Positions 6,624 through 17,056 of a DNA stretch of 18,483 bases are shown here, in pieces. Origin of the DNA: Candidatus Iainarchaeum sp. (GTDB lineage Archaea > Iainarchaeota > Iainarchaeia > Iainarchaeales > Iainarchaeaceae). The stretch is taken from the NCBI GenBank assembly GCA_043812975.1, contig JBDRLP010000026.1, forward strand, positions 1 to 18,483, written 5' to 3'. The notes under the pieces are model-generated. The model was not told the origin of the DNA, searched no databases, and saw only the letters and a program-made list of their open reading frames with translations. The stretch's first letter is position 1. The number at the start of each line of letters is the position of its first letter. Both the position numbers and the translations under genes were made by a program.

Positions 6624-6735
6624 TTTACATCATCTCCATAGTTTTAAACAAGCTACGGATACCTATGGAACCCATAGAATATATGGCTACCAAAGGTTTT
6701 TTAAAGATGTTGGGGGACTAACCCAAAAAATACCA

Positions 6736-6928
6736 TCCCCCCTCCCGGATTTGCACCGGGGATCTTCCGGTAACCGCACAAGCGATTATTTTTGCCTCCT
6801 ATTTTATGGAGGTAATTTCAACGCGAAGCCTGCTCTCTTTCTTTTTGGTCAAGCTTTTTCCTTTCTCCGCAGGAGAAAGAAAAAGGTTGTTCTACAGCCG
6901 GACGCTTTAGCTACTAAGCTAAGGGGGG
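6736..6928 (-). tRNA. tRNA-Tyr(GUA) with a 120-nt BHB intron at 37/38 (intron 6772-6891)
   Basis: 5' exon 6928-6892 CCCCCCT TA GCTT AGTAGCTA AAGC G TCCGG CT GTA G; 3' exon 6771-6736 A CCGGA AGATC CCCGG TGCAAAT CCGGG AGGGGGG A. C1:G72 and A73. BHB: CUGU/GCGG helix, bulges AG|A and UU|A, outer helix ACAA/UUGU. Confidence 0.93.
6836..6889 (-). repeat. Palindromic short element inside the tRNA-Tyr intron
   Basis: CAACCTTTTTCTTTCTCC-TGC-GGAGAAAGGAAAAAGCTTGACCAAAAAGAAAGA; homologous to 16055-16105. Confidence 0.7.
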
Positions 6929-6982
6929 ATTAACTCCCTTTTGGGTCCGAATAGAAATTAACTGAACTTACATTATTAAACC

Positions 6983-9101: not shown

Positions 9102-9115
9102 AGCCTCCGGTGGGA
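9102..9115 (-). repeat. att direct repeat (tRNA-Thr 3' end copy)
   Basis: AGCCTCCGGTGGGA is identical to 15357-15370 (tRNA positions 60-73). Confidence 0.92.
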
Positions 9116-9210
9116 TAAGCATCAATCGTTCGAAGCCCCTTCAAGCGTACGGTTTGTTTTCTTTACCTATAATGAACTAAGTTGTTAATAATTTTATCTT
9201 CTGAAAGCTG

Positions 9211-9384
9211 TTGTCCGAAAATACTGGGAAAGAAATGAAAAAAATCCGATTAGAATTAGGCATTACTCAAAAAGAATTCGCGAAACGATTAGGAATAACA
9301 CAATCAACGTTAAGTGATTATGAAGCAGGAAGAAGACCCAATCTTGGTGTGCAAATAGTGAAGAGGTTTGTTGAAAATATTTAG
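9211..9384 (+). CDS. XRE-family HTH protein (57 aa from TTG; 49 aa from ATG 9235); not in ORF track
   Basis: (M)SENTGKEMKKIRLELGITQKEFAKRLGITQSTLSDYEAGRRPNLGVQIVKRFVENI*, a classic HTH_3 pattern. Confidence 0.82.
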   Translation: MSENTGKEMKKIRLELGITQKEFAKRLGITQSTLSDYEAGRRPNLGVQIVKRFVENI

Positions 9385-9526
9385 GTTGAAGAATTCCAAA
9401 GTATAGGGAAACGAAATTTTGGTTAAATTTTTTGGTTTAGCCTATTCGTGTTTTGGCAAGTGTTGATATTTGAATTATAGCACTGGTTGAATGAAAATAG
9501 GCCTTAGTGATTAAAAAATTAAAGAA

Positions 9527-9548
9527 AGGAAAGGCAAAAACCTTTCCT
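9527..9548 (-). terminator. Hairpin with pyrimidine tail after gene 9564-10259
   Basis: AGGAAAGG-N6-CCTTTCCT, followed on the minus strand by TTCTTT. Confidence 0.5.
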
Positions 9549-9563
9549 AACTCACTTTTTGAA

Positions 9564-10259
9564 TTATTCAGGGAATATTGGCGGGTTAGATGAACTTGTA
9601 TCGTTGCTATTGATACTGCACTCTGAGTTGGTTCTTATTACAACTGTTTCGCCTGTTGGAAGGTCTGTTAGGACATCCCACTCAGAATTAAATGAGTCCC
9701 AAGACCAAGCCCCTGATATGTCACATCCAGGGAATGCTTCCTGGACGTTATTCTTTCCTTCTGTTATCCAAGAAGACAAAGCGACGAAATTATACCCATT
9801 TTTTAATGTAAATGTTAATGGGTATTGAACACTAGGATTTGAATCTTGTTGTGTTATTTCACACCTCTGATCTGAATAGAAGAAAAAAACTCCGTTATAC
9901 TTCCTTATGCTTTGGAAAAGATCTCCAAGTTTTTCTACATCTTCTTCAGTGATAGTGCCTTCTGCAATTCTTTGAGTAATACCATCGTCCAAAAGAACAT
10001 AGTCTTTGGAATCCCGATCAAAGTACCATCGGTCAACAGTCCACCCGGTTAATGTCCCTCCATTAGACAATGAAAAAGTTTCACTTAGGCCATTGCAGGT
10101 TATATTTTTAGGAGTCTTATCATTGACAATATTCCAACCTCTATCGATTTGCTGAGTGAAAGTGTTGTCACTATTATTATATGTTACTTGTGCTGCGAAT
10201 GCAGCCACGGAAAACAACAACACACCCAGAATAATAATTGTTTTTTTTATTTCTACCAT
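9564..10259 (-). CDS. Secreted hypothetical protein
   Basis: Signal peptide (...SVAAFA-AQ), internal duplication of a (L/I)xxG(W/Y)N(I/F)V motif, C-terminal NPPIFPE. GAGGTGA SD. Confidence 0.85.
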   Translation of the reverse strand: MVEIKKTIIILGVLLFSVAAFAAQVTYNNSDNTFTQQIDRGWNIVNDKTPKNITCNGLSETFSLSNGGTLTGWTVDRWYFDRDSKDYVLLDDGITQRIAEGTITEEDVEKLGDLFQSIRKYNGVFFFYSDQRCEITQQDSNPSVQYPLTFTLKNGYNFVALSSWITEGKNNVQEAFPGCDISGAWSWDSFNSEWDVLTDLPTGETVVIRTNSECSINSNDTSSSNPPIFPE

Positions 10260-10275
10260 TTTTAAATCACCTCTT

Positions 10276-10863
10276 TTAACTTGGTAAAGAAGGGGGTCTT
10301 AATCGGTCTCCTCCATCAACAATTTGTTGATCGTCATTTCCTTCTGGTAAGGCAGGAGGCTTAAGTGGAGATTGGTTTCCAACATCCCCCTCAGTTTCAT
10401 TGCCATTATAAATCAATGGACAGTTTTCTTGTTCTGCGGAAGAAATCTCTATTTCTATGCAAAAATTTTCTCCAATTGGATCAAAATCTTGTCTTGAAAC
10501 TATTTGACAACACAAAGTCAAGGGTTCAGTATAGGTTCTTTGAACAATAGGGCTTTTCAGAAAGTTTCTTATATGGGAATCGTTACTGCCTCTTCTTATT
10601 TCAAGGGCACTAAAATTGTTTGAACCAGCAGATTCTTCTATTTCACACCTAATTCTTTCAGATCCAAACGGCAGATAAACAGTCCCACTTACATTTGCAG
10701 TAAAAGTTTCGTCAGTACAAGCCCCAACAGATACCTCTTTAATAGAAAGATTATCCGTTGAAAAACTTTGTTTCAAGTCCTCAGGATAAAATTGTGTGTT
10801 AGTGCAGCCACTAATAAAAACCAAAATAGCAAATATAGCTAGTATAATCATTTTCTGACCCAT
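10276..10863 (-). CDS. Lipoprotein, Cys-containing, with two PPxLP motifs at the C-terminus
   Basis: FISGC lipobox; KPPALPE and RPPSLPS. Confidence 0.85.
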   Translation of the reverse strand: MGQKMIILAIFAILVFISGCTNTQFYPEDLKQSFSTDNLSIKEVSVGACTDETFTANVSGTVYLPFGSERIRCEIEESAGSNNFSALEIRRGSNDSHIRNFLKSPIVQRTYTEPLTLCCQIVSRQDFDPIGENFCIEIEISSAEQENCPLIYNGNETEGDVGNQSPLKPPALPEGNDDQQIVDGGDRLRPPSLPS

Positions 10864-10987
10864 ATGCTCATATATTATGAGCCATCCTATAAAAATATTA
10901 CTATCATATCTATTGACACTATCTTGTCATTTACATAACATTTTAATAGTATAAAATGTATGATACTAAAAAGGAAGATGTAGGTAA

Positions 10988-11389
10988 ATGAAAAACAAAA
11001 TGTTAGTGGTAATTTTTGGCTTGGTAATATTTCTAAGCGGATGTACTCAAAGCACTTCTACTATCTCATCATCAAATGTAGTATGTGCTAATATTGGAGG
11101 CATGGCCATAGAAAGCGCTTTGATTGATTCGTCAAGATTAATGCTACAAATATCGAACAATACTGGGGGGGATATTTCAGAACTGGACGTAAAAGCTAGT
11201 TTTGATGGCGGAACCCAAATACAGTCTAACGAACATAAAGGGGCTTCTTCAGTTGTCAGTGGGAAAACATTTAACATTAGTTTTAATGAACAAATAAGCT
11301 CCGGTTCGCACAATGCGGATATCGCAATAACTTATAATAACGGTGAGTTCACCAGAAGTGCTTCCACGACATGTACAATTAGAAACTAA
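10988..11389 (+). CDS. Small lipoprotein, likely Ig-like beta sandwich
   Basis: FLSGC lipobox; LQISNNTG..I pattern; two further Cys. Confidence 0.85.
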   Translation: MKNKMLVVIFGLVIFLSGCTQSTSTISSSNVVCANIGGMAIESALIDSSRLMLQISNNTGGDISELDVKASFDGGTQIQSNEHKGASSVVSGKTFNISFNEQISSGSHNADIAITYNNGEFTRSASTTCTIRN

Positions 11390-11542
11390 GTTTCTGAACA
11401 TAAATATTAACAACTTAGAGTCACTTTGGACTCAATACCAGTTTGAAGTGGTTATTAAAATAACATTATTTAAACAAGTCCTCAATTTTTTCCTTTACCT
11501 CTGTTCTCGTAAACGTAGTGCCTAATTTACTGTATTTTGTTT

Positions 11543-11680
11543 TCATTTACAACTGAACTTCAACATGGTCTGCTCAAGCTTCCTCATCCTTGTCTGCATT
11601 TCGTCAATTCTTTCATTCAGCGCGATGTAGTTTTTCATCGGACTGTTTGAGTTGTAGTTTTTTCCTGTTAAGTCGTGCAT
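11543..11680 (-). CDS. 45-aa coiled-coil micro-ORF
   Basis: MHDLTGKNYNSNSPMKNYIALNERIDEMQTRMRKLEQTMLKFSCK*. The ATG lies 1 nt after the previous stop. Confidence 0.5.
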   Translation of the reverse strand: MHDLTGKNYNSNSPMKNYIALNERIDEMQTRMRKLEQTMLKFSCK

Positions 11681-11681
11681 T

Positions 11682-11795
11682 TCAGAACGCCTTTCCTTCG
11701 AGCAGTTCTTCGAGTTCTTCAAACAAGAAGACTGTTGCTTTCTTGTGGTTTTTTTCAAAGTCTTTTATGGTTCTGCATTTTTGAGTCTTTTCCAT
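11682..11795 (-). CDS. 37-aa micro-ORF
   Basis: MEKTQKCRTIKDFEKNHKKATVFLFEELEELLEGKAF*. GGGGGA upstream. Confidence 0.45.
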   Translation of the reverse strand: MEKTQKCRTIKDFEKNHKKATVFLFEELEELLEGKAF

Positions 11796-11896
11796 TTCTT
11801 GTATTCCCCCAGCATGTATTTGGCACAGTCAAGTTCTTCATCACTCAAATCCAGTTCTTTTTCGAATCTCACTTGAAGTGTTGTCTGTGTATCCAT
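11765..11896 (-). CDS. 43-aa micro-ORF
   Basis: MDTQTTLQVRFEKELDLSDEELDCAKYMLGEYKKWKRLKNAEP*. Confidence 0.5.
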   Translation of the reverse strand: MDTQTTLQVRFEKELDLSDEELDCAKYMLGEYKKWKRLKNAEP

Positions 11897-12059
11897 AAAC
11901 CAAAAGCTGTTTTCAGAGTTTTTATTGTTTTTGTATAACGTAGTTTAACAAAGCTATACTGTGCTATACAAAGCACTTTCAAAGCTTAATGTCTACTGCT
12001 TCGGAGGGAACAAAACTAGATTATTGTAGTGCCTAATCAAAAAGGGCGAAAGTGCACAT

Positions 12060-12773
12060 CTAATTCTTATTGTAGTGCCTAAAATCACACACTTTAATTG
12101 TTTGTAGAGTTGCTTCTATGTGGTCTTTGTTTGACAGCATGTGTTCTGTGTCCAGGGTTATTAGGGATAGTTTTTGATTAATTTTCTTTGAGATAAAATA
12201 GGCATCCAAAATAACCTCTGTGTCCTTTGAGTAGTTAATTTTGTTTTCAAGTTCTTGGAACTCTTTTGAGTAATATTTTGAATGGTCTGAAGGGCACTTG
12301 TCATACATTGATATTTTTGCATTTGATCTTGGCTGACAAACAAGTATTAGTTCCATTAAACCGTTTTGGATTTCGCTTCTAATTTGGTTTAAATACTTTT
12401 CAAACGTTTCTGCATTTGAAGTAACAGCGGAAAAAATAGTTCCTGAACAAGCTTTTATGTAAGAAACAATTATTCTGTGTTCAAACGATTCTATGAATAA
12501 TTTTTTTGCCTGAAAAATAAGGGAACCTTCAACATCCATAGGATTTATTTTTGATGGATCCTCAAACATTTTCTGGAGAAACTGTGTATATACTCTTCTG
12601 CAATTGTTGATTACACTTCGTGCCTCTGAGAATACTCTTATACTTGTTACTCTTTTGAACTTTTTGTCATCAAAATACTCGTTTGCTTTTGGGTATAATT
12701 CTTCTTTTCTCCATTTAGTTAATCCGGTAAGTATAACGCTTGTGTCAAGAAAATGGTTTTTGTTTTCATTCAT
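12060..12773 (-). CDS. PIN-domain protein, putative toxin (start revised to ATG 12773)
   Basis: HFLDTSV (D1), VFSEAR (E2), KDTEVILDA (D3), LITLD (D4), with a long helical insert. Overlaps the upstream gene by 8 nt. Confidence 0.8.
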   Translation of the reverse strand: MNENKNHFLDTSVILTGLTKWRKEELYPKANEYFDDKKFKRVTSIRVFSEARSVINNCRRVYTQFLQKMFEDPSKINPMDVEGSLIFQAKKLFIESFEHRIIVSYIKACSGTIFSAVTSNAETFEKYLNQIRSEIQNGLMELILVCQPRSNAKISMYDKCPSDHSKYYSKEFQELENKINYSKDTEVILDAYFISKKINQKLSLITLDTEHMLSNKDHIEATLQTIKVCDFRHYNKN

Positions 12774-13707
12774 TCGTGTAACCCAAAACAATTGCCTTCA
12801 TAATAGTATTAGTATCGGTTTGTGGTTCTATTTCTTTCAAAGAAATTTCACTGTATTTCTCAAGTAGTTCTTCGTTCAGCAAGGCAACGGTTTTAGTAAA
12901 TCGTTTAACCGAATCGGAAAAATCCTTTTTCCAAAATGGAACTTTTTTATCATAAAATGAATCGTGGTGCTCAAGCCTTAATCCTTTGGCAAAACACTCC
13001 CAAGCTTCCTCACTAACTCTAAGAGATTCATCTAAAAGAAATAAGTCTTTTCCATTATTCATTGACATGAACGTTGTTATTTCACCAACCATATTTGCAA
13101 ACACTTGGTTAAACTCAGAGAAAGTTTTATCAAATGGCAATAAACTTTCGCAACCATACAAGGAGTCTGTTAACTTTTCTTTGTAATTTTCGAGGAATTT
13201 TTCATTTTCCTCTCCAGTTTCAATGAAATACTTGAATTCCCTAATCCTTTCTAAATAATCATGCTTATAATTTTTCATAAACTTATATGGGGCATTATCA
13301 TAAATTTCCTTGACCTTATTATTCAACTTGAACAAATCTGTTTCAATAATAATCTGATTGAGGACTTTCTTTGCTACAGAAAAATGTCCTTCATTTGGAA
13401 GTGAGATTCGTTTCTCCAATCTATAAAATACAAAACCATTTTCACTAACAGTCTGACTAAAAATATTTTCATTATACAAAGAAACAAGTTCCTGTTTAAC
13501 AGTTTCAGAAAAAGGGCCGTGCTTATACCAATAAAACTGCAAGGCATCCCTGATTTCTTTGTTATCAACTTTTTGCTTTAAATCAAATAACAATTTATGG
13601 AACCATGTTTCAGTCAGGGAAGCTTTTTCTTTTCTAATTTTCAAATCCTGTTCCCCAATGGCTAGCAACAGATTTCTAACAATCCTCTGATCAACAACCA
13701 CAGCCAT
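12766..13707 (-). CDS. Panacea/SocA (DUF4065)-like antitoxin-domain protein with a long C-terminal extension
   Basis: FHKLLF...FYWYKHGPFSETV resembles the KLLY...W.HGP signature. Directly upstream of the PIN gene. The start could be TTG 13719 or ATG 13707. Confidence 0.7.
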   Translation of the reverse strand: MAVVVDQRIVRNLLLAIGEQDLKIRKEKASLTETWFHKLLFDLKQKVDNKEIRDALQFYWYKHGPFSETVKQELVSLYNENIFSQTVSENGFVFYRLEKRISLPNEGHFSVAKKVLNQIIIETDLFKLNNKVKEIYDNAPYKFMKNYKHDYLERIREFKYFIETGEENEKFLENYKEKLTDSLYGCESLLPFDKTFSEFNQVFANMVGEITTFMSMNNGKDLFLLDESLRVSEEAWECFAKGLRLEHHDSFYDKKVPFWKKDFSDSVKRFTKTVALLNEELLEKYSEISLKEIEPQTDTNTIMKAIVLGYTNE

Positions 13708-13971
13708 ACACAAAACCAAACGAAAGATTCAACAATAATACAAAATCCAACTTTATTAAACTTTCTTAAAAATTATGCTGAAATAATCCTTAAAAAGCTA
13801 TTTTAATCAAACTGATTGAATTCCTCTTCATATAGAAAAACGAATAAAACCCATTTCAAACAAATGCTAATTCCCTGCAAAATTACTCTTTAGATTGAGT
13901 TCCGTTTCACCAATGAAGTAAGCTCTAGTACCTTCCATGAAATTTATTTCGTGCCCTCGCCTTCTTTTCAG

Positions 13972-14106
13972 CTATAAAGACAGGAGAAGGACTGCCGTGC
14001 CTACTAAAGTCGTTACGACTACAATTATTAGAACCAATATCAGCATTGGCAAACCATAGTCTGCTCCCATGTAGAAGTATGTCTGGTTTTTTGGTGCGTT
14101 GCTCAT
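13972..14106 (-). CDS. 44-aa single-TM micro-protein coupled to integrase 2
   Basis: MSNAPKNQTYFYMGADYGLPMLILVLIIVVVTTLVGTAVLLLSL*. GGGGTGA SD and ATGA overlap with the integrase stop. Confidence 0.65.
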   Translation of the reverse strand: MSNAPKNQTYFYMGADYGLPMLILVLIIVVVTTLVGTAVLLLSL

Positions 14107-15296
14107 TTTGTCACCCCCGCTTCAATTACGCTGAGTGTTTCCAATAGCCTGTCAGGATTGTCCTTGTATTTTTTGAGCAATTTCATTAAGGCTATTATTC
14201 CGGTGTCTTCTTTCCTTTGTTTTTCTTCTGCTTCGAATGCCGCTTCTTGTGTAAGGGGCAACCAGCACTTAGAACAATAAGAATTGTTCACGTCATTTTG
14301 TTCTTTGCATCTTGGACATTCATTTCTTTTCAGAATGTCTTCTTTCCTGTCTTCTTTTATTATTCCGTGCATCCTCAGGATTGCATTGTCAACCTGTTTG
14401 CCTGACAGGTGCACGTATTGGGCGGCCATGTCTGAGGATGGTGTCCAGCCAAAGTATTCTTTCAATTGTGCTTCGGTCAGGAACTGTGCCATGTATGTTG
14501 CCCGTGAATGCCTGAAGTTGTGAGGGTTTACCGGTTTTTTTATTCCTGCTCTTTTTGCTGTTGTTGAAATCAGTTTCATTATGTAACGGTGCCCCATTTG
14601 CTGTAGCCTGTTGAATTTAACATTAACCCAAACCGGGCATTCAAGGTCATTGTTTGTAGGGTGTTTGTTCAGCCATTCCATCAAGTCCGGTGCGGAGTTT
14701 ATCAGCCTCACTCTCCGCCTTCCTGTTTTTCCATTGACAAGAATTTTGCACCCATGCTTGTCAAAGCTAACGTGCTTTATTTTCAGTGTGCCTATTTCGC
14801 TTATTCTTGCTCCACTTTCCCATAGGACAGAGATTAATGCCTTGTCTCTTGGAGAGGAAGTGTTTTTCAATAATTTTTTGACTTCCTCTTGTGTAAGCAT
14901 TTGTTCTGGAAGTTTCTTGGATTTAGTTCTGGTGCTCTTAAACCATTTGACGCATTCAGGGTATTCGTCTTTTCCATCAAGCCACTTATGAAATACTTTT
15001 AACACTCGCTTGTAGGTGCAGATTGTTTCATGCGAAAGATCGGAACGCTTTAATCCTAATAACAGTTCCTCATAATCTTTTGTTTTAACCTTGTCGAAGT
15101 CTTTTTGTGTTTTCAAAGCAACTATTCTGAGTGTGCTTAAATGTTTTATCATTCTTGCATTGCTTAAATCCCTCATTAAATTGTAGCGGTGAAAATCCAT
15201 TATTATTTTTTTATTTCGTTTTGAAACAGCTGAGTTTTCAAGTTTGCTTATTTCTCTTTCAAGGATTCTTTCGAACCCATACAAATCGTTTTGCAT
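14103..15296 (-). CDS. Tyrosine recombinase/integrase with C-terminal zinc ribbon
   Basis: ESGARISE, GKTG, HNFRHS, FGW, QYVHL; CPRC...CSKC tail. GAGGAGG upstream. Adjacent to tRNA-Thr. Confidence 0.95.
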   Translation of the reverse strand: MQNDLYGFERILEREISKLENSAVSKRNKKIIMDFHRYNLMRDLSNARMIKHLSTLRIVALKTQKDFDKVKTKDYEELLLGLKRSDLSHETICTYKRVLKVFHKWLDGKDEYPECVKWFKSTRTKSKKLPEQMLTQEEVKKLLKNTSSPRDKALISVLWESGARISEIGTLKIKHVSFDKHGCKILVNGKTGRRRVRLINSAPDLMEWLNKHPTNNDLECPVWVNVKFNRLQQMGHRYIMKLISTTAKRAGIKKPVNPHNFRHSRATYMAQFLTEAQLKEYFGWTPSSDMAAQYVHLSGKQVDNAILRMHGIIKEDRKEDILKRNECPRCKEQNDVNNSYCSKCWLPLTQEAAFEAEEKQRKEDTGIIALMKLLKKYKDNPDRLLETLSVIEAGVTK

Positions 15297-15356
15297 AACC
15301 TTTCCCTCCTCAACCGAAACCGCTTTAAAGGAGGGGGCTTAGAACCAGGGATACAA

Positions 15357-15463
15357 AGCCTCCGGTGGGAGTCGAACCCACGACCCGCGGTTCATTTGCC
15401 ATTTATAGTATAAATACTATTAATAGTTACAAAACCGCTGCTCTACCACTGAGCCACGGAGGC
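15357..15463 (-). tRNA. tRNA-Thr(UGU) with a 35-nt BHB intron at 37/38 (intron 15393-15427)
   Basis: GCCTCCG TG GCTC AGTGGTA GAGC A GCGGT TT TGT A [intron] A ACCGC GGGTC GTGGG TTCGACT CCCAC CGGAGGC T. BHB: UUUG/CAAA helix, bulges UA|A and UG|A, outer helix CUAUU/AAUGG. Confidence 0.95.
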
Positions 15464-15508
15464 GTGAGATTATTGAGTCTAGTATCGTTTATAAATTCTT
15501 TCATTTGT

Positions 15509-15907
15509 TTAGAAATACCTAAATTCTTTGGCATAATGTATATTTTTTTGTTGATTGTTTTTTGTCTTTTCTAGCCTTATTGTGACTTCAGTCATTCCTT
15601 CAACTTTTTCAATAGGTAATAAATAGCCTTGTTTATTTTGTGCATCGTAAATTCCAAATGAGTCTATCTCTTTTTTTGAATACTTTTTAACTTGCCAGTT
15701 ATTTGAAGATTTTAATCTGCAGAACAGAACTCCTCTGCGTGGCTTTGTTGATTTAATTTGTATTCTTTTGAATTTTCCTTCTTTTTCAAGTAAGAGGTCT
15801 ATTGGGGTGTCTTCTCCGAAAGGTAGGAATATATTCCAGTCTTTTCTAATAAATTCTGCAGCAAATCTTAATTCTCCTTCCTTTGCAAGTTGTTTTTTCT
15901 CAGTCAT
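15509..15907 (-). CDS. PD-(D/E)XK endonuclease, group I intron-associated (PDDEXK_5 / I-Ssp6803I-like) family
   Basis: GE......F......I..P.G....IDLL.......RIQIKS...Y....ID.F..Y pattern; 132 aa. Confidence 0.85.
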   Translation of the reverse strand: MTEKKQLAKEGELRFAAEFIRKDWNIFLPFGEDTPIDLLLEKEGKFKRIQIKSTKPRRGVLFCRLKSSNNWQVKKYSKKEIDSFGIYDAQNKQGYLLPIEKVEGMTEVTIRLEKTKNNQQKNIHYAKEFRYF

Positions 15908-15979
15908 CTCATAAATATAATTGATTTGTAGTTATATTGATTTTGAGACTGGCCTCTTTGCCGGTGGGAAAAATTTAAG

Positions 15980-16054
15980 TGCTCCGAGGGGGATTCGAAC
16001 CCCCGTCGCTACCGTGAGAGGGTAGCATCCTTGACCGGGCTAGACGATCGGAGC
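15980..16054 (-). tRNA. tRNA-Glu(CUC), intronless
   Basis: GCTCCGA...CTACC CT CTC AC GGTAG CGAC GGGGG TTCGAAT CCCCC TCGGAGC A. Confidence 0.96.
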
Positions 16055-16105
16055 AAAGCCTTTTTCTTTCTTGGAAGAAAGAAAAACCCTTGGGAAAAAG
16101 AAAGA
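16055..16105 (+). repeat. Palindromic short element abutting the tRNA-Glu 5' end
   Basis: AAAGCCTTTTTCTTTCTT-GG-AAGAAAGAAAAACCCTTGGGAAAAAGAAAGA; homologous to the tRNA-Tyr intron element. Confidence 0.7.
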
Positions 16106-16222
16106 ACCCGATTAAGGGAAAATCCTTGGAATTCCTTAAAAAACTGCCGTTGACAATGGTTCTGTTGAGAATGGTCAACAGCAAATATTTTAAGTTCTGA
16201 GTGCTTAATTTTATTGTTTTAA

Positions 16223-17056
16223 ATGCCTCCAAGAAGAAGAAAACCAGATCCTTATGCTGCTTTAGAAAAAGAACGAAAACTTAATAGACGAGCATTTTTA
16301 GGTCTTGGAGCAATTACTGCTGCAGGAGGAATCCTGAGTTTTCTTAAACTATCCAAAAAACCAGAAGTTAAACCAAGCAAACCAATACAGATGAAAATGG
16401 TTGTTGAAAAGAAACCTGAAAGAGAACCAAAAAAACCAAAACCAAGGCCAAAACCAGCTCCAAAACCAGGGCAGAATTTTATGGTTTATCGTGAAGGCTT
16501 GAAAGGCGAAGCTTTTGCAAAAGCTTATGGAGTGCCTTTCACTAGAAATGTTTTTGATTTGAATAAAATTCCGGCAAATTTAGTTCATGATGTGAAGGTT
16601 CTTGTTACAAGAGAATGTGCAAAATACAATAAAGTTTGTGAAGTTAATCCGAAAGGCATTCAAATAGTTGATCCGCATGAAATCCTTGCAGTTATTGAAC
16701 ATGAATCACATTACAATCCGAATGCAAGAGGAAAAGCAGGGGATGCTGGTTTTGGACAGTTGATGCCAAGCCAGATAGAAACTCTAAAGAAATTTTCTAA
16801 AATGCCGATTATTGTGTCAGACCCTTATGACCCGGCTCAAAACATTACAGGGATTGTAAGAACTTTTGTATGGTTTGCGAATCATCCTGCAAATAAAGAA
16901 AAGTCAACCACTTGGAGACGTTTTGCATCATATAATGCAGGCAGAGGCGGTGCAAAAGATAAAATAATTCTCTGGAGCCGCAGATATGCCAATACACTTA
17001 CTGCAATCTGGAAAAGAATGCAAGATAATAAGGAATTGGCAAATTACATTAATTAA
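16223..17056 (+). CDS. SLT-domain lytic transglycosylase with twin-arginine-like signal and Pro/Lys linker
   Basis: NRRAFLG plus hydrophobic stretch. AVIEHES (catalytic E), GFGQLMP, DPYDPAQNI, ASYNAG. Confidence 0.88.
   Translation: MPPRRRKPDPYAALEKERKLNRRAFLGLGAITAAGGILSFLKLSKKPEVKPSKPIQMKMVVEKKPEREPKKPKPRPKPAPKPGQNFMVYREGLKGEAFAKAYGVPFTRNVFDLNKIPANLVHDVKVLVTRECAKYNKVCEVNPKGIQIVDPHEILAVIEHESHYNPNARGKAGDAGFGQLMPSQIETLKKFSKMPIIVSDPYDPAQNITGIVRTFVWFANHPANKEKSTTWRRFASYNAGRGGAKDKIILWSRRYANTLTAIWKRMQDNKELANYIN

Follow-up and report, generated by a model that had tools for sequence, protein, structure and literature searches.

The window analysed here, which is the whole of an 18,483-base contig (C26) from the 1.24-Mb, 94% complete genome (G000) of a Candidatus Iainarchaeum species, encodes a free-standing nuclease of family PF11645 just upstream of a tRNA-Thr(UGU) gene that is interrupted by a bulge-helix-bulge (BHB) intron. 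Judging from sequence comparison, we lean towards the view that the nuclease is a homing endonuclease aimed at the tRNA-Thr(UGU) gene, and that the intron serves as its immunity. That the nuclease and the interrupted tRNA belong together is suggested by a survey of related nucleases, in which a tRNA-Thr(UGU) gene lies within 125 nt in 59 of 65 loci and 53 of these 59 tRNA genes carry an intron of 13-63 nt at position 37/38. The features on which the argument turns are the following.

15509..15907, minus strand: free-standing nuclease gene, 132 aa, PF11645 (PDDEXK_5), I-Ssp6803I-type PD-(D/E)XK
15464..15508, minus strand: spacer of 45 nt from the nuclease stop codon to the 5' end of tRNA-Thr, read from the sequence
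15357..15463, minus strand: intron-bearing tRNA-Thr(UGU), Rfam tRNA model 59.1 bits, anticodon loop with an insert of 37 positions
15393..15427, minus strand: BHB intron of 35 nt at position 37/38, ARAGORN i(37,35); equivalently 15392-15426, with A at both flanks
15980..16054, minus strand: tRNA-Glu(CUC), the upstream neighbour, ARAGORN and Rfam, 58 bits
9102..15370, no strand: integrated island of ~6.2 kb, given for context only, from 14-nt direct repeats, an integrase and synteny

All three genes are on the minus strand and follow one another, in the order of transcription, as tRNA-Glu(CUC), a gap of 72 nt (3' end of tRNA-Glu to start of the nuclease), the 132-codon open reading frame (ORF), the 45-nt gap and tRNA-Thr(UGU). 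These coordinates confirm the original prediction that the nuclease gene is free-standing and co-oriented between two tRNA genes, 45 bp from tRNA-Thr. It is the only PF11645 gene in the genome, and its partner is the sole UGU-anticodon Thr tRNA detected there, since ARAGORN with the intron option lists one Thr tRNA each for CGU, GGU and UGU. Plain ARAGORN overlooked the gene, which was detected only with the intron option. The Rfam tRNA model finds 31 tRNA genes in the genome, several of them long enough for introns, so that an intron as such is unremarkable in this organism. In the four best DNA sequencing runs, we found only short contigs identical to the window, at a depth of 2-4.5, of which one read-derived contig of 352 nt spans the intron-bearing tRNA-Thr and the 3' part of the nuclease gene; the joints in these runs are tRNA genes of other organisms with 85% likeness, and no RNA run is listed.

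The nuclease spans positions 2-137 of the 138-position PF11645 profile, with E 3.3e-24 and a score of 85.9 bits, where the cut-off is 26.1. When its AlphaFold2 (AF2) model (pLDDT 87.8, pTM 0.81) was compared with the PDB, the four top matches were chains A-D of 2OST (E 7.9e-8 to 1.1e-4, TM 0.67-0.71), the best single match having TM 0.71 and E 7.9e-8. 2OST is I-Ssp6803I, the endonuclease encoded in the tRNA-fMet group I intron of Synechocystis; this prototype of the family cleaves a tRNA gene at its anticodon region. Weaker fold matches include the SPARDA nuclease domains, MepB and the archaeal Hjc resolvases. The sequence is only ~19% identical to that of 2OST (pairwise phmmer E 0.092), with D37 and Q50-x-K52 aligned to its D...QVK stretch. 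In our subfamily alignment (A1), D37, Q50 and K52 are invariant and E10 and E12 are conserved in at least 90% of sequences, and all five, which we take to be the catalytic residues, are intact in 49 of 49 distinct full-length proteins from the surveyed loci. The nuclease is thus a PF11645, I-Ssp6803I-type endonuclease by profile, modelled fold and residues, in agreement with the homing-type PD-(D/E)XK assignment made earlier. No group I intron surrounds it: Rfam lists just the two tRNAs in the window, and the nearest intron is the 35-nt BHB intron.

Modelling supports self-association of the nuclease, as a predicted homotetramer. With four copies the model reached a score of 0.87, while the best of three controls stayed at 0.00; contacts agree to at least 96% across runs, and the partner pLDDT is at least 79. 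The mark for this score was calibrated with two copies; of 30 proteins solved as one-chain pairs 20 reach it, and of 23 solved as single chains one does. The four-copy model may have passed because it resembles the solved 2OST tetramer, which the predictor may know.

The insert in tRNA-Thr is a canonical archaeal BHB intron at position 37/38, as ARAGORN and the motif read by hand both indicate; the original prediction had named a 35-nt BHB intron. Its fold has a z-score of -5.15 against shuffles. The hBHBh' motif consists of the 5-bp anticodon stem, a 3-nt bulge UGA, a 4-bp helix UUUG/CAAA, a 3-nt bulge UAA and a 5-bp outer helix, the central helix being formed by nucleotides 32-35 (UUUG) and CAAA near the 3' end of the intron. 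In the same register, all four central pairs are formed in 44 of 47 distinct related introns, with covariation between U32-A and C32-G. The anticodon arm of the intronless tRNA-Thr(UGU) relatives is a 7-bp inverted repeat, GCGGTTT-TGT-AAACCGC; an intron at 37/38 interrupts this repeat one base into its right arm and shifts the halves 13-63 bp apart.

Linkage of the nuclease to tRNA-Thr(UGU) and its intron

A protein search returned 85 clusters, all of PF11645, which are 60-92% identical to the query bar one partial sequence at 43%, and nearly all of which are 131-136 aa long. Where they are titled, the close relatives come from metagenome-assembled genomes of Woesearchaeota, Pacearchaeota and Nanoarchaeota. 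The 65 loci surveyed comprise 51 metagenome contigs, 13 genomes (one per species) and the window, and tRNA-Thr was called in them by a parser that scores the acceptor, anticodon and T stems. ARAGORN labels the neighbouring tRNA variously as Thr, Tyr, Phe or Ser; it is the same gene throughout, with the loop YUUGUA. Three arrangements of the two genes were found.

tRNA downstream, co-oriented: 42 loci, spacing 28-98 nt (40-51 nt in 40 of the 42), intron of 15-63 nt in all
Divergent: 12 loci, spacing 87-125 nt, intron in 10
tRNA upstream, co-oriented: 5 loci, spacing 44-65 nt, intron in 1
tRNA-Thr not detected: 6 loci

The distinct tRNA-Thr sequences number 47 with and five without an intron. 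Four of the six loci with no tRNA-Thr end at the contig edge just after the nuclease gene, on its downstream side, and in a fifth (L099) the contig ends on the 5' side, where an 87%-identical relative has its tRNA. L097 is the only locus that has room on both sides and no tRNA-Thr.

How often tRNA-Thr(UGU) is interrupted irrespective of the nuclease was estimated in two genome samples with sequence patterns, the intronless pattern being an exact match from the anticodon region through the T arm and the intron pattern being the same with 10-40 extra bases after A37. In the first sample, 215 genomes of the window's phylum as sampled, 101 genomes are intronless and 17 have a 10-40-nt intron; PF11645 occurs in four (G000, G003, G011 and G147), all among the 17. 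The second sample, an order centred on G215 (151 genomes), has 83 intronless genomes and 33 with a 10-40-nt intron, and its four strong PF11645 matches are all among the 33 and are each followed on their own strand, at 40-70 nt, by the tRNA pattern. The original prediction had proposed comparing the presence of the nuclease with that of an intron in the adjoining tRNA; the two go together not only at the 53 of 59 loci but also in the two samples combined (366 genomes), where eight of the 50 intron-bearing genomes and none of the 184 intronless ones have the nuclease. The pattern recurs in two orders, in hosts whose RNA polymerase subunit RpoA' is only ~50% identical. We attach no formal probability to the contrast of 8/50 with 0/184 because related genomes are not independent.

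Weak PF11645 matches in G059, G291, G309 and G261 cover the N-terminal half of the profile only and were left out of these counts as a different protein. The G309 and G261 matches are remote from tRNA-Thr, if they share its contig at all, and the G059 locus yielded no tRNA. In one genus (L129, L130 and L132; genomes G069, G070 and G072), tRNA-Thr is interrupted at 37/38 by G+C-rich introns whose lengths are 99, 134 and 196 nt, and no PF11645 gene is found in the genome.

The tRNA-Glu to tRNA-Thr gap and the neighbouring island

The 23 genomes of the window's family show what the locus looks like with and without the nuclease. tRNA-Glu and tRNA-Thr(UGU) are usually linked in them whether or not the nuclease is there, and in most of them a gene for a CxxCxxCC-domain protein (PF03692) stands in between. 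In other lineages the upstream neighbour of the nuclease is not tRNA-Glu. Natively linked to tRNA-Thr in this family but not a constant partner of the nuclease, tRNA-Glu adjoins the nuclease gene incidentally and has no visible role.

The nuclease is present in three of the 23 family genomes, namely G000, G003 (92% identity) and, in another genus, G011, whose copy is N-terminally shortened, lacking residues 1-43 (profile positions 44-132, identity 86-87%). Empty sites are found in the same-genus genomes G001 and G005, which have just 72 and 47 nt between tRNA-Glu and tRNA-Thr. tRNA-Thr(UGU) was detected in 19 of the 23 genomes, 11 with an intron of 17-40 nt and eight without, and all three nuclease-bearing genomes are within the 11. 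A six-frame search of 25 loci (G003, G011, G059 and 22 nuclease-less ones) with the subfamily profile for decayed nuclease copies found only the shortened gene of G011. A weak tblastn match in G137 (E 0.002) was unconfirmed by the profile search.

The 45-nt spacer of the window holds a TTTATAAA box at 15488-15495, 25-32 nt 5' of tRNA-Thr, which is likely to be the tRNA's own promoter. G003 and G011 share this spacer, which is likewise kept 5' of tRNA-Thr in the nuclease-less G004, G014 and G010. T/C-rich inverted repeats, CTTTTCTTT...AAAGAAAAG, are found directly 5' of tRNA genes in the family, at 16055-16110 in the window, and take the place of the TTTATAAA-box spacer 5' of tRNA-Thr in G001, G006, G008, G015, G017, G020 and G021; they are possibly a promoter or processing element.

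On the other side of tRNA-Thr is an integrated island. One copy of a 14-nt direct repeat, AGCCTCCGGTGGGA, is at 9102-9115, and the other, at 15357-15370, coincides with the 3' end of tRNA-Thr; this attachment (att) repeat was identified by direct comparison of the two island junctions, and searches for a long repeat of the tRNA-Thr 3' part returned just the tRNA itself. Directly past the tRNA-Thr 3' end is a tyrosine integrase gene (14103..15296; PF00589, E 9.7e-21), whose product has a zinc-ribbon-like CxxC...CxxC stretch at its C-terminus. Synteny with the same-genus G003, from which the island is absent, picks up again at ~9053. As the repeats, the integrase and this synteny place the island at 9102-15370, the nuclease is outside it, on the 5' side of the tRNA, which upholds the earlier placement of the gene beyond the att-bounded island. 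Since the att repeat is at the 3' end of tRNA-Thr, the intron of the window did not keep the element from integrating.

It could be asked whether the nuclease has no particular tie to tRNA-Thr and is simply carried as cargo, either by a mobile element or because the stretch between the two tRNA genes is a hot spot of variable content. The content of the gap in the family does vary and includes genes of selfish type: G014 has a ParE/MazE-like pair, G002 a Bro-N protein and G004 a DUF4258-like ORF. An integrase island is also right next door. Against this, the nuclease is on the 5' side of the tRNA and outside the att repeats, and its partnership with tRNA-Thr holds in 59 of 65 loci, across hosts with ~50% RpoA' identity and with the other neighbours varying. 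The linkage data already largely refute this explanation, which we regard as very improbable.

Also in the gap, G004 has a 249-aa ORF (L038 3724-4473, plus strand) with no Pfam match, which stops at the distance of the nuclease from an intron-bearing tRNA-Thr and is followed by the same promoter-like spacer; perhaps it fills the niche that the nuclease has in the window.

Three other observations were made around the locus and in the genome. ARAGORN calls a tRNA-Tyr(GUA) with an intron of 112-169 nt a few kb 3' of tRNA-Thr in the window (6735-6929, minus strand) and in four relatives (L037 724-908, L042 83-324, L050 4266-4464 and L124 336-523). The recurrence suggests that the call is real; the Rfam gathering search of the window does not list the gene. 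At 16223-17056 (plus strand), this archaeal window encodes a protein that looks secreted and has a lytic transglycosylase SLT domain (PF01464, E 4.3e-15); it is kept at the same place in G003 and G002 and may act on bacterial murein. Elsewhere in the genome (C1 29367-33086, minus strand) is an ORF of 1240 aa, of which the first 40 residues were viewed; it starts with an elongation-factor-like GTPase motif, is much longer than the usual factors and may hold an intein.

A proposed homing mechanism and its alternatives

How the nuclease and the intron could work together may be pictured in four steps. The nuclease would act as an oligomer, modelled as a homotetramer like I-Ssp6803I, that recognises the DNA of an uninterrupted anticodon arm. 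It would then cut this DNA. The break would be repaired from the nuclease-bearing allele, whereby the nuclease gene, and possibly the intron, would be copied beside the tRNA. Finally, the BHB intron at 37/38 would separate the half-sites, so that the nuclease-bearing allele stays uncut, and the splicing endonuclease would restore the tRNA from the interrupted transcript. In this way the intron would let the nuclease and an essential single-copy tRNA coexist. Cutting in the anticodon arm is proposed because the prototype enzyme binds a pseudo-palindrome, the anticodon arm is an inverted repeat and the intron splits its halves.

Several points weigh against this mechanism. Its recognition site, cleavage and gene conversion are deduced from the anatomy of the locus, its distribution, the symmetry of the arm and the prototype. 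The genomes within each sample are related, so that 8/50 against 0/184 overstates the number of independent events; 97 of the 215 and 35 of the 151 genomes fit neither pattern. The 5' half of the tRNA is recognisable in 39 of the 58 genomes with a completeness of 90% or more; 31 of the 39 are intronless and eight intron-bearing, a few of these introns being 99-196 nt long. Most intron-bearing tRNA-Thr alleles are without the nuclease, intron sequences differ widely even within a genus, and the six-frame profile search found no remnants of the nuclease in intron-bearing loci that lack it. Lineages have different anticodon-stem sequences, which change together with the nuclease clade, so that the specificity of the enzyme would need to co-evolve with them. 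The identity between nucleases ranks as host relatedness does, so that much of their history may be vertical, and their conservation above that of RpoA' could reflect a selected cellular role.

The most direct objection comes from the tree of the 49 distinct nucleases. The divergent arrangement is found in two neighbouring clades, and the upstream, co-oriented loci, together with the intronless divergent locus L091 (L117 being an identical copy), form one clade with support 97/95. This clade has six distinct nucleases with intact catalytic residues, five of which (L083, L084, L085, L116 and L091) are beside an intronless tRNA-Thr. The intron is therefore not the sole route to immunity, and in this clade immunity must have another source or the target must be elsewhere. 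The relation between the two partners is one-sided: bar this clade, the nuclease never occurs without the intron, and the intron occurs mostly without the nuclease. One of the five, L116, is titled Candidatus Dojkabacteria bacterium, which brought up a transfer between domains; this was dropped, as its genes for ribosomal protein S3Ae and Gins51 and its synteny with the archaeal L083 mark it as an archaeal contig in a bacterial bin.

These observations bear on an alternative that we consider rather unlikely, in which the nuclease is a homing endonuclease gene tied to the tRNA-Thr locus and owes its immunity to something other than the intron. Cutting would then take place elsewhere in the tRNA gene or its flanks, protection would come from small sequence differences or from the insertion itself, and the link to the intron would reflect shared ancestry or another cause. 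The clade that keeps all its catalytic residues beside intronless tRNA genes is what this explanation expects, and so is the abundance of intron-bearing alleles with no nuclease. There is also a precedent for working intron-free, namely the free-standing SegB in the tRNA cluster of phage T4, as its published description has it (PMC2330249), and the viral relatives of the nuclease (see below) are among tRNA genes that ARAGORN detects without the intron option. On the other side, the intron is present in 42 of 42 co-oriented downstream loci and 10 of 12 divergent ones, against a background of 17 of 118 and 33 of 116 pattern-matched genomes. Intron loss is frequent (8 of 19 family genomes), and in those two arrangements it is never seen together with the nuclease except in L091/L117.

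Taken together, the claim of the original prediction that the intron confers self-immunity is backed by its correlation with the nuclease and is limited by the one clade with intact residues beside intronless tRNA-Thr. Its further suggestion, that the nuclease is a possible route for the spread of tRNA introns, has less support than a dependence of the nuclease on the intron, because the introns are diverse, the alleles that carry them mostly lack the nuclease and decayed copies were not found.

For five other genomes, the identity of the nuclease to the window's copy was compared with those of two host proteins, RpoA' and LeuRS (per cent identity).

G003: nuclease 92, RpoA' 92, LeuRS 70-86
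G011: nuclease 86, RpoA' 80, LeuRS 68
G147: nuclease 77, RpoA' 62, LeuRS 48-58
G215: nuclease 68, RpoA' 49, LeuRS 54
G216: nuclease 63, RpoA' 50, LeuRS no orthologue-level match

Between distant hosts the nuclease is more alike than RpoA' and LeuRS, but the rank order is the same. Since it is absent from ~98% of genomes and yet conserved above RNA polymerase, its copies most simply share a more recent ancestor than their hosts do; since the rank order follows host relatedness, transfers, if any, would be mainly between relatives. Signs of mobility are the patchy distribution, the empty sites in congeners, the one shortened copy and the three positions around the same tRNA. The patchiness, the shortened copy and the conservation above RpoA' fit a homing element.

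The same conservation could be read as that of a domesticated cellular nuclease with a locus-linked role, such as resolving or repairing DNA or guarding against integrating elements, which is kept in place by co-expression. The strong conservation (60-92% across the 85 clusters bar the partial sequence at 43%, and above RpoA' at a distance), the catalytic residues intact in all 49 distinct full-length proteins, the ranking of identity with host relatedness and the Hjc resolvases among the weaker matches of the modelled fold all speak for this. However, just four genomes in each sample (215 and 151 genomes) have the nuclease, and so do just three of the 23 in its own family, where one copy is shortened, and the window's tRNA-Thr has taken up an integrase island despite the nuclease. 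As a needed function would not be absent from most close relatives, a domesticated role is weakened as an explanation, and we hold it to be unlikely.

Viral relatives and comparison with known systems

A viral collection holds 40 distant relatives of the nuclease (L158-L197; 25-41% identity), and all 16 that were checked belong to PF11645 above the cut-off. A tRNA gene lies within 4 kb in 32 of the 40 viral loci, and in 25 of the 40 it is within 300 nt and always co-oriented. In five of five whole viral records (G217-G221), the nuclease gene is inside the single tRNA array or 195 nt from it, the arrays making up only 22.5 of 532 kb in total (4.2%). At one viral locus (L161), a tRNA-Thr(UGU) gene is 53 nt upstream. 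For jumbo gut phages, stand-alone genes of the PDDEXK_5 type have been listed among the homing endonucleases (PMC12880540, in its accessible text). We found no description, in open-access papers and preprints, of the position of PF11645 genes in tRNA arrays or of their archaeal partnership with tRNA-Thr, nor one of an association between a PF11645 nuclease and an intron-bearing tRNA-Thr.

These relatives invite a wider idea, which we put forward tentatively and regard as doubtful. PF11645 would be a homing family specialised on tRNA genes across domains, in a cyanobacterial tRNA intron, in phage tRNA arrays and at tRNA-Thr of DPANN archaea, and BHB introns at 37/38 would have been gained or retained for making the anticodon arm uncuttable. 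If this were true, some archaeal tRNA introns would be the outcome of an arms race with endonucleases and would have been carried along by gene conversion.

Why archaeal tRNA genes have introns, often just past the anticodon, is an old question, to which protection from viral integration is the main idea according to the available part of PMC4090602. The pairing of nuclease and intron makes the idea of a BHB intron as immunity directly testable. In the proposal of Randau and Soll described there, archaeal tRNA introns shield tRNA genes from integrating viruses. The two ideas are alike in that an intron in or near the anticodon loop disrupts the DNA site of a selfish element and splicing restores the tRNA; they differ in the threat, which is an integrase att site in that proposal, as far as the same part of the paper describes it, and would be a homing endonuclease here.

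The closest known system is I-Ssp6803I itself. The nuclease of the window shares with it the Pfam family, the top fold match of its model over the full length, the D...QxK stretch and a modelled homotetramer, and both are tied to a tRNA gene that is interrupted in the anticodon loop. The two are only ~19% identical, and the present gene is in an archaeal host and is free-standing, 45 nt 5' of the tRNA. There the intron is a self-splicing group I intron in tRNA-fMet; here it is a protein-spliced BHB intron of 35 nt in tRNA-Thr(UGU). I-Ssp6803I binds a 23-bp pseudo-palindromic target as a tetramer, according to the available part of PMC3384342. If the homing mechanism proposed here is true, the nuclease would be the first archaeal, and the first free-standing cellular, case for this endonuclease family.

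A second parallel is collaborative (trans) homing, which the accessible parts of two reports describe for F-CphI with the psbA intron of cyanophage S-PM2 and for mobE with the I-TevIII intron of T4 (PMC6083498, PMC2790892). As in those accounts, a free-standing endonuclease gene adjoins a gene whose intron interrupts the presumed target and would make the allele immune. By the same accounts, the known cases are in phages and involve group I introns, Endo VII-like or HNH enzymes and protein-coding genes, with cleavage demonstrated; the present one is in an archaeal cellular genome and involves a tRNA gene, a BHB intron and a PD-(D/E)XK nuclease, with cleavage inferred. If the mechanism holds, a BHB intron would join collaborative homing, so far the domain of group I introns in phages.

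SegB of T4, a GIY-YIG enzyme, is free-standing in a tRNA cluster and promotes the inheritance of the tRNA region, as described in the accessible text of PMC2330249. The likeness is that of a free-standing endonuclease gene amid tRNA genes, and the viral PF11645 relatives are in the same kind of place. In contrast to the present case, SegB has another nuclease fold, belongs to a phage rather than a cell and, as far as that text describes it, has no intron. The interpretation in the original prediction is partly supported, and the comparison across genomes has strengthened it considerably. The case would bring two known kinds, the I-Ssp6803I family and collaborative homing, to archaea, a BHB intron and tRNA-Thr, a setting that is new for them.

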